Counted from the stretch's first letter, positions 28,515-37,882 are shown. The stretch is 44,339 nt of DNA from Candidatus Hodarchaeota archaeon (GCA_016839815.1 JAEOTM010000088.1:1-44339), one strand, 5' to 3'. Notes: generated from the sequence alone by a model not told the origin. Numbers and translations are program-made.

Positions 28515-28697
28515 CTATACAAGATATAAATTGAGAGTTAGGACAAACAAACCTAGGATTATTGAATATTTACCGATCTTTGAACCAGTAGGGACATAAA
28601 ATATTGCTCCTAAGGTAAGTGTGAATAAGCCAAAAGGTATAGAGATAAAAATCGTAATTATTTCAGTTAATATTTGAAGAATCATGATTTCTAGCAT
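28515..28697 (-). CDS. 60-aa two-helix membrane protein, VirB2/CedA1-shaped
   Basis: Hydrophobic helix - GAIFYVPTGSKIGK turn - hydrophobic helix; 4 nt downstream of the previous gene. Confidence 0.5.
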   Translation of the reverse strand: MLEIMILQILTEIITIFISIPFGLFTLTLGAIFYVPTGSKIGKYSIILGLFVLTLNLYLV

Positions 28698-28701
28698 AAT
28701 A

Positions 28702-29289
28702 TTACCACTTCCATTTAGGAAACTCAGGAAAATGATTACCTAGGGGTAGAATAACCAACAAAAGACAGAAAATACTTTTTTTTATATTTTTAACGGCTAT
28801 TTTTTCCTGATTAAGCAAATAAAGACCACAATTTCCAGTGAAATATATTAACGATAATGTAGCAAAAATGAACACAAGATACATACTTAGGAATGATGTA
28901 AAAGCTTCAAGCTGCGCATAATTCGTCGAATGTAAGCTATTCTTTAGAGATGTATCATTGAATATGAACATGAATAATCCAATCACACTCAATGCTCGAA
29001 TGATCATCCACTTTCCATTTTCTTCCTTTTCATCGAGTAAGTAAGTTAATCCTCCAATAATCAATGAGATATTTGAAATAACTACCGCTATTGCGTAAAG
29101 AAACGGAATTACATCTACAAATAAGCTTATTACTGAAGATGAAAATTCCTCATATCCATTAAAATTAAATAAATTTTCAAAAAGTACTTTTTTATCAATT
29201 AAAATTGTGAAAAAGAAGTACTGTGATAATAAAAGGTTTTTTTGAAACATATTCAAGAGAAGATGTCCACTCTGAATATAAGATCCCAA
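28702..29289 (-). CDS. Membrane protein with two tandem helical-hairpin (VirB2/TrbC-shaped) repeats
   Basis: GGLTYLLDEKEENGKWMIIRAL and NCGLYLLNQEKIAVKNIKKSI are internally similar units. Confidence 0.55.
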   Translation of the reverse strand: MGSYIQSGHLLLNMFQKNLLLSQYFFFTILIDKKVLFENLFNFNGYEEFSSSVISLFVDVIPFLYAIAVVISNISLIIGGLTYLLDEKEENGKWMIIRALSVIGLFMFIFNDTSLKNSLHSTNYAQLEAFTSFLSMYLVFIFATLSLIYFTGNCGLYLLNQEKIAVKNIKKSIFCLLLVILPLGNHFPEFPKWKW

Positions 29290-29345
29290 ATTCCTTAATA
29301 ATTTAAATTAGACTAATTTCCACCTAGTACGATTCAAAATGACAA

Positions 29346-35900: not shown

Positions 35901-36454
35901 GAAATACGTCTTTCTATTCCCTTATGAATAATACATATATTATTGAAGCACATTTTCAGAATTTCAAGTGGAATACCACTGTTAATGTTACATTGGAGGT
36001 AATATTTTCAAATGGATTTCATTCTATTAGTCCTGAGCAAATGTTTTCAATAATCGATCCTTTTCCTCCTGAATATTCATACTTTATAGATTTTCGTGAC
36101 GAATCCTTTGATCTTCATTTACTCGTGTCCGAATCAGATGAAGGATCAGGTGTTCATGAAATTGATTGTACCTATTTTGGTATTCAATATAATTCCACTC
36201 TTTTGACACCAGGACATCATTTATTTGAAATTCCCTTTGAAGAATCTCAAATTGGTAAAATCAATGTTCTAATCTCTGATAAAGCAGGTAACAACAGTTC
36301 TTTTACTATTGATTTAAATTTAGAAATAGAATTCCCAAGTTCGAAAGACAAAGCAGATCCTTCGATATTCCTTCCCTCGGTTTTGTCACTCCTCATCATC
36401 AGTGTGATTTTCTCTGTCAAATTCGTAAGAAGAAGACAGAAGTCTATTCTTTGA
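32930..36454 (+). CDS. Large membrane-anchored surface protein (beta-rich, heavily sequon-bearing)
   Basis: Signal peptide; many NxS/T; Ig-like DPFPP..DKAGN unit; C-terminal TM followed by RRRQK. Confidence 0.8.
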   Translation: MKNLNTSWSNIKSLLILFLFIFSVGVTITKSPVPSSINIHEYENRIKSLTHDPKLSNYSPRILTDIHSNSTESFQIPYTSNQNVSINVTSKKLVSINSSSTNDIVIRSTPQSSSFNIHSVVTEEKISWQNNIEPDYGEVDVIQNLSASTPYYRLNFSENNVTPVSGITNVDFNITSNPDPYNFSTNFLFRYRISHIDSGLINEDHSLVLELRFNNASLNFIIADKGSYFGAPLENNIYKPSTNSLYILCNETDQSNWITELYNITYLITQYFLPTEYTMFMNLKTVFCYMFAFIPEYSISLDIQETSYSTVLPANESAVNYTINEKTIQSDNGSLVYEIIGGNVSLFLEESSIWQKYQLTNFNVEINREVVIFTQPRVVQWNNSYVKVNLTLSIPQLIPFQVSNKLYLNLPMDWALINNLNSSVSFVTLGLLEIAPDNTTCLIYRFSVENLKFLILQFATPNYIQDIEVPTILSYNEVVQVEGRLIHSISNTLHLYLLNETVFHHTTTTCMLNGSFMFPMINIDDHYPIGMIELLVNISSSYRFGLYRQILHIHSGETGITSINLLTSENIELYQYDPLFLNLSLEKNGQKYIESSVLVIAVLGESIHQFNQSINGFFHLLITHVLWPSQQNNLTVIASNGEDFFASKRIAITIFPVVVDWDIQGVPTEFNPIINLSLQINMFVSPQEGGTNWPLSEVKLTYWINSSMTQECYTNDFGYSNVIIPTNTYTTAKILNLLVIAHLKNTFLKMDLFSISVSNFSNESDRVHPNLNEIMRDPVYSNKSFFIFYNIIYPENGSLWIISSNKYPNPPISAFLLRDNYILEITINSQSITWDLISNPSNNDTLVLEFQGPTITYSLSNKPSSYDLHLECLSDFTISNYCIALNLDFIKFPLSNITLRDFLRRDISDKFVIELIGSYLYLKDLNIINGIIVNYYLEIQFEIPQVEILSNFQESYAYNETIVGKWRFSTSTEFSYKVSYTLQNRFHSECRNTSFYSLMNNTYIIEAHFQNFKWNTTVNVTLEVIFSNGFHSISPEQMFSIIDPFPPEYSYFIDFRDESFDLHLLVSESDEGSGVHEIDCTYFGIQYNSTLLTPGHHLFEIPFEESQIGKINVLISDKAGNNSSFTIDLNLEIEFPSSKDKADPSIFLPSVLSLLIISVIFSVKFVRRRQKSIL

Positions 36455-36463
36455 GCTGATTGA

Positions 36464-37882
36464 ATGAATATTAAAAGAGAAAATCATCTTTGGAATATTT
36501 TACTGATTTTAGGATGTCTGATAGGATCAATTTTTGTTTTAAATTGGTTGTATGAAATACTTTCCCTAGAAATTCAACTTTTCTCTGCTAGAATGGTAAC
36601 AGTACTAATAGGTAATTTTGTCCCTCTTGGAGTTACGTGCTTATTGATTTTATATGAACTTAATCTGTTACCATTTTATAAGAAACAATTTTTATTAATT
36701 AAAGAAGATAATTTGATCTGCATCCCTTCCTTTCATACATATATCAGTATATTTGAATGTACATCATTCTCAAACCTTTATATTGACGGACTAGGTTTAT
36801 TAAATGGTTTAAATCGTTATTCAATTGAGATTTTTAGTGATGAACAGCGGTTAAGGATTTATTTATATTCAGATTCTAAAATAGACATGTTTAGGCTGGT
36901 TAAAGATGCCCAACCATTGGTTGAAACAGTTTTTCCCAATATCTATATGCTCACTAGTTCAGATCTGAAAACAGAATTTCAAGATTATTCGCTTGACCGA
37001 AGGGGGGAGTATCGGTTTATTCAACAGGGGAAGTATTGGATCATTCCCACGATTGAGCAAAAATCAGATATAAAAAGTCCCAAAAGTTATACAGATGTTT
37101 ATAATTTTCTTTCACCAAAAAAACCTGTGAAAAAAAACAAACTTGGTAATTTTACTCAACTTTATTCGATTACAAAGACACATAAAATGTCATTTTTCGA
37201 TTTTTTCGGATTCAGGTGTTTTTCTACAAGTATTACGCATGCTTATGAAGATTTTAAAGAGGATCTACTTTACAGAGCAATTATTAGGTTTTATCTGGTA
37301 GGTTGTTCTTCTATATTTGATAAAGATGGAATAACTAACATACAACGAATTTTAACCTCATCATCAATAGAATCTGACATTCCAGATTATTCAGAAACAT
37401 CTCTTTCTCCTCAATCCGATGAAATCGATTATGTTTCTAGTGATACGGATACTGAAATGAATAATAAAGACATTAACCCGATTTGTGTTGAACTCTGTAA
37501 TATCTCACGTGGTAAAGATGAAATCACAGTAAAAGCTAAAAAGTGTTCTATTCGTTCAGCATTTAGTAAGAAGCTCTTAGTGAAGCAGAATTTGTCTGGT
37601 TTTCTTAATGAATTAGTTAATGGTGAAGATGATCAAAGAAGAGATGACTTATTATCTGATTTATTCCGACATATGTCGTTCCATCAAATCTATTGCCTAA
37701 TAGTACATTTTCTCACTACTCAACGACCTCATTCGTATGCTAACCAAATTATTCAACTTTTCCACATTCTAATTCAGAAACGACTTACAAATATTCAAGA
37801 AGAAGAAAATGTCGATCCAAATACTCTTTCAATTGTTGGCTTCTTCCAACAGCGGTTGAATCAGGGAGTTAACTTAATCTAA
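36464..37882 (+). CDS. Hypothetical protein with two N-terminal TMs
   Basis: 472-aa ORF 9 nt downstream of the surface-protein gene; no NTPase motif seen. Confidence 0.7.
   Translation: MNIKRENHLWNILLILGCLIGSIFVLNWLYEILSLEIQLFSARMVTVLIGNFVPLGVTCLLILYELNLLPFYKKQFLLIKEDNLICIPSFHTYISIFECTSFSNLYIDGLGLLNGLNRYSIEIFSDEQRLRIYLYSDSKIDMFRLVKDAQPLVETVFPNIYMLTSSDLKTEFQDYSLDRRGEYRFIQQGKYWIIPTIEQKSDIKSPKSYTDVYNFLSPKKPVKKNKLGNFTQLYSITKTHKMSFFDFFGFRCFSTSITHAYEDFKEDLLYRAIIRFYLVGCSSIFDKDGITNIQRILTSSSIESDIPDYSETSLSPQSDEIDYVSSDTDTEMNNKDINPICVELCNISRGKDEITVKAKKCSIRSAFSKKLLVKQNLSGFLNELVNGEDDQRRDDLLSDLFRHMSFHQIYCLIVHFLTTQRPHSYANQIIQLFHILIQKRLTNIQEEENVDPNTLSIVGFFQQRLNQGVNLI

Follow-up and report, generated by a model that had tools for sequence, protein, structure and literature searches.

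A diverged gene cluster of a Hodarchaeales genome as the probable core of a Tad/Flp-like type IV filament system of Asgard archaea

Known filament systems and the Asgard locus

Among known organisms, Asgard archaea are the nearest relatives of eukaryotes. The syntrophic contacts that are central to models of eukaryogenesis are mediated by their surface structures, to which, to our knowledge, no genes have been assigned. We analysed a window of 44,339 nucleotides (nt) from Candidatus Hodarchaeota archaeon (GCA_016839815.1, JAEOTM010000088.1:1-44339), which carries a divergent cluster of seven genes at 28515-37882. The genome (G000) has 4.24 Mb and is 89.5% complete, and the names of homologues place the organism in the Asgard order Hodarchaeales. 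The cluster is probably the lineage-specific core of an ancient, vertically inherited Tad/Flp-like type IV filament system of Asgard archaea. An original prediction from the sequence had read it as a hybrid of a pilus motor and subunits like those of a type IV secretion system (T4SS). The first part of this stood, as motor and platform appear to be of the type IV filament kind, and the second part did not, as neither profiles nor folds supported T4SS-like subunits. The features are collected in Table 1, in which the nicknames p60, p195, p124, p1174 and p472 give the protein length in amino acids (aa).

Tad systems are thought to derive from archaeal Epd-like 'system 1' filaments. The Asgard locus resembles Tad/Flp (type IVc) systems in its CpaF/TadA-like ATPase, in a platform that is often split into TadB- and TadC-like proteins in Asgard loci, in a very short pilin whose leader is basic and which has Gly at -1 and Glu at +5, and in a MinD/TadZ-like gene that is found in some Asgard loci. 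It differs from them in that the Asgard components lie at or under the family thresholds, that there are no outer-membrane parts and that a predicted dedicated paralog of the transcription factor TFB (TFIIB) is present. In the window genus, the platform is also fused, the set is enlarged by four genus-specific proteins and a large anchored glycoprotein, and pilin and regulator are dispersed over 24 kb. A TadZ (MinD/ParA-like) ATPase is absent among the seven cluster genes but present in other Asgard loci (L077, L087).

TFIIB homologues were reported in archaeal type IV pilus loci by Makarova, Koonin and Albers in 2016, and a non-pilus, transcription-related role was suggested for the subclade 4D of Thermoproteales (PMC4858521). 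4D consists of the ATPase arCOG05558, an unrecognisable protein with four to five transmembrane (TM) segments (arCOG05557/13890), the TFIIB homologue arCOG05559 and Rpo8, with no pilins (PMC4858521), and a 2026 census of archaeal type IV filaments repeats this account (PMC13705601). Compared by description, the Asgard module is like 4D in that its ATPase is diverged, that its membrane partner cannot be recognised and that both are joined by a TFIIB homologue in the company of RNA polymerase genes, and the Cys-rich N-terminal domain of arCOG05558 recalls the N-terminal extension of the long Asgard ATPases described below. In contrast to 4D, for which neither pilins nor secreted proteins are described, the Asgard module includes a Flp-like pilin that is conserved and, in Heimdallarchaeia, a large surface protein. 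The '4D remnant' of Thermoproteales may thus be a genuine pilus system in reduced form. The census also states that an ordered type IV filament locus is rare in Asgard genomes (PMC13705601). Unlike this statement, we observed an ordered, vertically inherited module of TFB, ATPase, platform and Flp-like pilin across most of the sampled phylum. Family models miss it because platform and pilin score under the Pfam cut-offs. Our literature search found no paper on this combination of TFB, ATPase, platform and Flp-like pilin in Asgard archaea.

The ultraviolet (UV) regulon of Sulfolobales comprises TFB3 together with the ups pilus and ced genes (PMC6101594; PMC11823120). The Asgard locus is like this regulon in that a type IV pilus goes together with a TFB paralog and that small leaderless two-helix proteins, there CedA1 and CedA2, accompany a polytopic protein. 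It is unlike Ced in that the VirB4-like CedB and VirD4-like CedD ATPases and the CedA channel have no counterpart in the locus. With canonical Aap/Ups-type pili, of which the same genome has a locus of its own, the Asgard set has in common an ATPase, a platform, class III pilins and a PibD-type peptidase. The pilins of that canonical locus are of the DUF7261/7266/7289 type with globular parts and are not Flp-sized.

Motor, platform and pilin

Asgard-wide counts refer to 201 sampled genomes, and same-genus synteny to 20 kb around the ATPase orthologue in 10 genomes. All seven open reading frames (ORFs) were correctly called in the original prediction, in two divergent arms with four genes on the (-) strand and three on the (+) strand. 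Where contigs reach, 10/10 same-genus genomes carry all seven genes with order and orientation unchanged, which shows that the ORFs are real genes and not chance. The predicted seat among core informational genes was also borne out: rpoA'/A'' lies on the left and S9-L13-L18e-rpoD on the right in all same-genus relatives. Identity of rpoA' is 91-99% among these orthologues, and the cluster proteins diverge far faster (ATPase 52-73%, platform 36-61%, p1174 29-60%, p472 22-44%, p195 39-65%, p60 39-80%, and p124, the best conserved accessory protein, 47-78%). The GC content dips in the cluster (0.30-0.32 vs 0.35-0.39). Horizontal acquisition was considered as a cause of this dip and rejected in view of the genus-wide synteny, the presence of the core across the sampled phylum and the highly conserved informational flanks. 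The ATPase clade occurs in 170 of the 201 sampled genomes, and this core is vertically conserved with conserved neighbours; it therefore does not look like a captured mobile element, and the description 'chromosomally domesticated' is not supported. Gene maps of other Asgard classes contain the TFB-like gene, the ATPase, the platform (single or split) and the Flp-like pilin, and some of them also a MinD/TadZ-like gene.

By hidden Markov model (HMM) and PDB rankings, on which its placement rests, the ATPase is a diverged T2SSE enzyme, and its earlier call as a TadA/VirB11 ATPase stands, since Pfam, NCBIfam and PDB rankings place it in the TadA/FlaI/VirB11 superfamily. It is the sole cluster protein recognised by Pfam or NCBIfam, with 58.7 bits on T2SSE (cut-off 24.9); its NCBIfam matches (VirB11, FlaI, TrbB, TadA, BasE) are weak and far under the cut-offs. 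The motifs are intact, with the Walker A GPPNSGKTT, the Asp box SVEDVLE, the Walker B ...DYVNLGE with its Glu and the His box TIHG. The closest solved relatives are Archaeoglobus GspE2 (afGspE, 2OAP; 2.8e-18), then CpaF and FlaI (both ~1e-13) and VirB11 (1e-6). In a collection of 5.8 billion proteins, about 110 Asgard proteins match at 35-75% identity, followed by a gap to bacterial CpaF proteins (E 1e-17), which are the best non-Asgard matches. Long ATPases of 687-752 aa, with a Cys-pair-rich N-terminal extension of ~250 aa, occur in several non-Heimdall Asgard lineages (L080, L081, L082, L085, L087); the window ATPase has no such Cys-rich extension. A canonical pilus locus is present on contig C150 of the same genome (~5800-13700, L044), with a PilB3_C ATPase, two T2SSF genes and class III pilin-like genes of the DUF7261/7266/7289 types. 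Its ATPase is 23% identical to that of the window. Thus, counting the diverged one of the window, at least two filament systems are encoded in the genome. Contig C6 (52214-52576; 39313-39846) carries yet another, third T2SSE-type ATPase (632-aa frame), which scores weakly and lies ~13 kb from one of the canonical TFB genes.

We accept the 489-aa protein as a very diverged T2SSF platform on profile and fold evidence, in line with the earlier call of a TadC/PilC-type platform. The protein itself has no Pfam match, and the T2SSF model matches nothing on the window contig even at E<=10, whereas the canonical platform genes of contig C150 score 59-62 bits on it. Within the family, 6 of 27 members weakly match Pfam T2SSF (best E 1e-4), and hhalign aligns the family with canonical Asgard TadB-like proteins over 262 columns (78% probability, E 1.8e-5). 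A profile search of 1.84 billion representatives returned just 42 relatives, and the profile found no relative among PDB sequences. The AlphaFold2 (AF2) model has a predicted local distance difference test score (pLDDT) of 80 and a predicted template modelling score (pTM) of 0.71. When it was compared with 48,161 PDB chains by VIA-align, the top four were SpoIIIAB, the EpsF cytoplasmic domain, a PilC model and the PilC N-domain (Z 9.9-8.4), all of them on residues ~86-207. Foldseek put the same PilC model first, though weakly (E 0.11). In most Asgard loci, platform homologues directly follow the ATPase, often as two genes like TadB and TadC.

A Flp-like class III prepilin is encoded in the same window. 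It reads RKRRG/SPLVEEG (the slash marks the predicted cleavage site), with a basic leader, Gly at -1, Glu at +5 and, where the Flp/Fap motif G/xxxxEY has Tyr, Glu at +6, followed by a hydrophobic helix. Its family (60-70 aa) was found in 175 of the 201 sampled genomes. Where pilin and ATPase genes share a contig, they lie within 12.5 kb of each other in 72 of 75 cases and within 5 kb in 42 of 75; in the window genus the pilin is ~9.8 kb from the motor cluster. The original prediction had noted that the hairpin proteins lack class III leaders; read as a lack of class III pilins in the whole system, this is not supported, as the prepilin in the same window is linked to the ATPase clade throughout the sampled phylum. 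A Loki-type homologue reaches 18.4 bits against Pfam Flp_Fap PF04964 (cut-off 32.2, E 0.0019), and the window pilin has no Pfam match. A prepilin peptidase of the A24/PibD type is encoded on contig C122 (PF01478, 28.2 bits, cut-off 26.5).

It is conceivable that the canonical machine of contig C150 assembles the Flp-like pilin, that the cluster serves an unrelated membrane function and that the synteny is historical. The canonical locus is complete, and the pilin lies 10 kb from the motor in the window genus. However, that locus has its own pilin-like genes, many Asgard lineages have the Flp-like pilin 0.3-3 kb from the diverged ATPase, and pilin and platform arm share a promoter element. We give this explanation very little probability.

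Several further genes were observed around the pilin and the motor. In the window genus, 93 nt separate the pilin gene from an operon of small-GTPase, KaiC-like and roadblock genes (18828-19430) that is arranged head to head with it, and in a Hermod-type locus (L081) small-GTPase-like and FtsZ/CetZ-like genes lie beside the pilin. Proteins of ~131-140 aa with an N-terminal '..LEK[GAI]' and a hydrophobic helix (L077 10957-11352, L081 9840-10235, L087 2811-3215, L080 5598-6020) occupy the interval between the TFB-like gene and the ATPase, or that between ATPase and platform, in several non-Heimdall Asgard lineages; none was found in the window. They are candidates for minor pilins or stator-like parts.

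Table 1. Features of the window: the seven cluster genes, the pilin, the TFB paralog and the promoter elements
Feature	Coordinates	Strand	Description
Promoter element, first copy	19479-19494	+	TTAGGTTCTTAAAAAT; BRE-like TTAGG and TATA-like box; 29 nt upstream of pilin ATG
Flp-like class III prepilin	19524-19736	+	70 aa; RKRRG/SPLVEEGILIGL; Glu at +5; predicted filament subunit
p60	28515-28697	-	60 aa; two-helix membrane hairpin protein, accessory
p195	28702-29289	-	195 aa (probably 182 aa, as called in the collection, start near 29250); two-long-hairpin membrane protein, accessory
Assembly ATPase	29346-30680	-	444 aa; type IV filament assembly ATPase, T2SSE superfamily; Pfam PF00437, E 5e-16
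p124	30714-31088	-	124 aa; cytoplasmic Cys/His protein, CPxCG...H..H...C; first gene of ATPase arm
Promoter element, second copy	31223-31238	+	TTAGGATCTTAAAAAT; in the divergent spacer, facing the platform arm; 133 nt upstream of platform TTG
Platform	31372-32841	+	489 aa; TTG start; predicted fused, highly diverged T2SSF-type platform (TadB/TadC, PilC, FlaJ analogue)
p1174	32930-36454	+	1174 aa; predicted secreted, C-terminally anchored, sequon-rich surface glycoprotein
p472	36464-37882	+	472 aa; two N-terminal TM helices, large fast-evolving cytoplasmic part, acidic linker
TFB paralog	42811-43818	+	Divergent TFB (TFIIB) paralog; Zn ribbon, cyclin-like repeats; predicted dedicated transcription factor

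TFB paralog, shared promoter element and proposed mechanism

The TFB paralog matches Pfam TFIIB (6.5e-5) and the Zn ribbon (0.004). It is the fifth, outlying TFB of a genome that holds four canonical ones. The family was found in 168 of the 201 sampled genomes, and when TFB-like gene and ATPase are on the same contig they are at most 15 kb apart in 102 of 102 cases and at most 5 kb apart in 78 of 102. The TFB-like gene precedes the ATPase in other Asgard families; in the window genus it lies ~12 kb from the motor, on the side opposite to the pilin. Named records of the family come from Hermod-, Odin-, Thor-, Jord-, Frey- and Helarchaeota, and a pattern scan with a four-sequence alignment gave only Asgard-type records among the matches listed (80 loci).

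A 16-mer, TTAGG[T/A]TCTTAAAAAT, is common to the pilin promoter and to the spacer in front of the platform arm. Allowing at most one mismatch, these are its only two sites in the 4.24-Mb genome; since the pattern was derived from the same two sites, this genome count alone proves little. By our rough estimate, the element would recur by chance within the 283-nt spacer a few times per thousand. A related TTnGG..TTAWAA element stands at the pilin position in 7 relatives and at the platform-arm position in most relatives. Neither for the TFB-like gene nor for the ATPase arm did the comparison of upstream regions reveal a shared element. A 5' leader of ~100 nt is predicted for the platform arm. 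A G-rich block that directly precedes a TATA-like box is the layout that would be expected of a promoter with B recognition element (BRE) and TATA box for a specialised TFB, and TTAGG..TTAAAAAT promoters are the predicted targets of the TFB paralog.

The company of transcription genes also fits another explanation, a repurposed remnant of the kind proposed for 4D: the pair of ATPase and platform would make no filament and would power another membrane task, such as export, insertion or turnover of p1174 or other proteins of the envelope, or a transcription-linked task. As in 4D, the module is linked to a TFIIB homologue and to RNA polymerase genes, since the cluster lies between rpoA'/A'' and rpoD, and two other Asgard loci have rpoB next to the module. 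The divergence of platform and ATPase is extreme, and a large glycoprotein with an anchor, conserved across Heimdallarchaeia, is predicted to be co-transcribed with the platform. 4D itself is described as a likely remnant in the 2026 census (PMC13705601). Unlike 4D as described, however, the module is accompanied by a class III Flp-like pilin in most sampled Asgard genomes, and here this pilin shares its promoter element with the platform arm. Furthermore, the ATPase retains all catalytic motifs, a TadZ-like MinD and additional pilin-like genes occur in some lineages, and frozen gene order near conserved operons can explain the informational neighbours. A remnant is thus unlikely.

Taken together, the ATPase clade, the linkage of pilin and TFB, the platform evidence, the shared element and the peptidase lead us to read the cluster as the motor of an Asgard pilus system. 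By homology, the 444-aa protein is the assembly ATPase, of the hexameric type, and the 489-aa protein its fused TadB/C-like platform in the inner membrane; the set is completed by the Flp-like prepilin, the peptidase of contig C122 and the TFB paralog. We propose that the TFB paralog recognises the unusual BRE/TATA element, so that the pilin and platform-arm promoters would be switched on together. The peptidase would cut the pilin after RKRRG, and the ATPase, docked on the platform, would pull pilins from the membrane and polymerise them into a thin Flp-type filament. The co-transcribed, anchored glycoprotein p1174 may be an envelope or adhesion partner, and p124 may act with the ATPase in the cytoplasm. 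The hairpin proteins p60 and p195, like p472, would be genus-specific membrane accessories around the platform rather than subunits of the filament. The system is likely to serve adhesion or contact between cells in sediment.

If this is right, the module would be a case, open to test, in which a paralog of a basal factor serves a single set of operons. It would also provide concrete gene candidates for the pili of cultured Heimdallarchaeia, in which cryo-electron tomography revealed 'occasional pili of one type' whose genes are unassigned. The Hodarchaeales version adds four orphan proteins to the Asgard Flp-type system.

Some points weigh against the pilus reading. The platform call is built on sub-threshold sequence signals and on helical-bundle Z scores of ~8-10, which chance can give. 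In this genus, the distance to the motor is 10 kb for the pilin and 12 kb for TFB, and their link to it depends on phylum-wide synteny and on a self-derived promoter element; the Flp-like pilin might in principle be used by the canonical locus of contig C150. For four of the seven cluster proteins, the roles given are guesses. Reads with the locus came from marine-sediment DNA runs of one study only and from no RNA run. Finally, the papers of 2016 (PMC4858521) and 2026 (PMC13705601) read the TFIIB-linked 4D systems as possibly not pili.

Hairpin proteins, surface glycoprotein and neighbouring genes

The hairpin proteins p60 and p195 had been called pilins of VirB2/Ced shape. As predicted folds, the hairpins themselves were recovered: two in p195 by AF2 and one in p60 by its family alignment, in which two hydrophobic helices surround the conserved loop PTGxxxGKY. 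The true length of p195 is probably 182 aa, with a start near 29250, and the AF2 model of this form (pLDDT 76) has its hairpins at 33-72/77-97 and 109-147/150-171. One same-genus genome has a p195 orthologue of just 90 aa (L036 8663-8935), which may be due to a frameshift or an assembly error. The p60 family has 27 proteins and the p195 family 36, all from Hodarchaeales-type assemblies. We considered that the three hairpin units might form one paralogous family and rejected it, since hhalign of p60 against p195 gave a probability of only 0.6%.

The likeness to VirB2 and Ced pilins was not confirmed, as TrbC and T4SS_pilin HMMs, PDB profiles, Foldseek and VIA-align gave nothing specific. TrbC PF04956 had no match at E<=1, and T4SS_pilin PF18895 had none on the window contig at E<=10. 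The p60 and p195 family profiles retrieved no solved pilin from PDB, and p60 has no relatives in PDB, Pfam or the ESM Atlas. By Foldseek and VIA-align, the p195 model resembles only generic four-helix bundles. With the TrbC and T4SS_pilin models, Foldseek and VIA-align, similarity of the hairpins to CedA1 or VirB2 was thus not detected. Among the ESM Atlas feature neighbours of a p195 homologue are clusters with T4SS_pilin (0.88) and with DUF4134, TrbC/VirB2 and CedA1 (0.82 each); neighbours below 0.9 are a lead only.

These leads are part of what speaks for a hybrid machine, in which motor and platform of the type IV filament kind would make a conduit for DNA exchange out of the leaderless p60 and p195, serving as VirB2/CedA1/TedC-like pilins. 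The hairpins have no signal peptides, like the published CedA1 and CedA2, and a TFB paralog co-regulates type IV pilus and Ced importer in Sulfolobales (PMC11823120). They also occupy the place after the ATPase that is held by platform and pilin in other Asgard lineages. Against it stand the negative HMM and PDB profile searches and the generic bundle folds, and the Atlas neighbours of a p60 homologue are uninformative. A VirB4 search (PF03135) of the whole genome found nothing at the cut-off (best 17.2 bits vs 21, on another contig), a TraG-D_C or TraG/VirD4-type domain was not found in the genome, and the five DUF87/HerA matches are all on other contigs. The statement that no VirB4/HerA ATPase is visible in the window agrees with this, and the 'DNA-exchange machine' is not sustained, since the 89.5%-complete genome has no VirB4/TraG-type partner at threshold. 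No polytopic channel of the VirB6/CedA type was encountered either; the sole polytopic protein of the locus carries a predicted GspF/PilC-type cytoplasmic domain and is T2SSF-like. Moreover, the hairpin families occur in one genus, whereas the motor and an ordinary Flp-like pilin occur across the sampled phylum. Because an ordinary pilin is available, we assign little probability to the hybrid.

A related idea is that the Flp-pilus motor has been rewired in this genus, with hairpins and p1174 forming a composite surface structure, either knob-tipped filaments or a Ced-like conduit, in which the hairpins are structural subunits. We know of no system that combines hairpin subunits with a type IV filament ATPase. 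Cultured Hodarchaeales have protrusions with unexplained 15-25-nm knob-tipped filaments, and their genes are unassigned (bioRxiv 10.1101/2025.02.26.640444). We regard such a composite structure as quite doubtful.

Under the preferred reading, in which the cluster drives a Flp-type filament, p1174 would be a partner at the level of the class. It has a signal-like N-terminal segment and a C-terminal TM anchor with a basic tail, which agrees with its earlier description as an anchored surface protein, and 44 N-glycosylation sequons vs ~20 expected from composition. hhalign relates it to anchored proteins of 944-972 aa that stand beside the TFB-like gene in other Heimdallarchaeia families (98.6%, E 1.3e-15, 871 columns), and this homology to neighbours of the module indicates a class-level partner. 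Anchored proteins of this kind, S-layer-like, were described from archaeal type IV pilus loci (PMC4858521).

The remaining cluster proteins, like the hairpins, are specific to the genus: p60, p195, p124 and p472 were seen in this genus only and have no detectable relatives. In p124, C36, C39, H68, H73 and C90 are kept in all orthologues, and it is a probable Zn-binding partner or regulator. Its HMM found no match outside the genus. That p124 is the split-off N-terminal domain of the long Asgard ATPases was examined and rejected, as hhalign gave 0.3-0.4%. For p472, no family match was found in Pfam or NCBIfam.

The informational setting of the module is also seen elsewhere. Orc1/Cdc6, followed by a small winged-helix gene, lies a few kb from the module in several loci (L042, L043, L076, L077, L080, L088), and rpoB or the L3-L4-L23-L2 genes adjoin it in other Asgard families (L076, L079, L080, L091). 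The neighbourhood of the module is thus a conserved informational one that is possibly also close to an origin. On the right flank of the window cluster, a putative intron-bearing tRNA is followed by S9/L13/L18e/rpoD. In 37966-38157, which forms the right border of the cluster in all relatives, ARAGORN found no tRNA, and the translation looks like a typical reverse-tRNA ORF artefact. The adjacent S9 ORF (38172-38678) has 168 aa from its first possible start. Because its orthologues in relatives have 133 aa, the true start of S9 is probably ~35 codons downstream.

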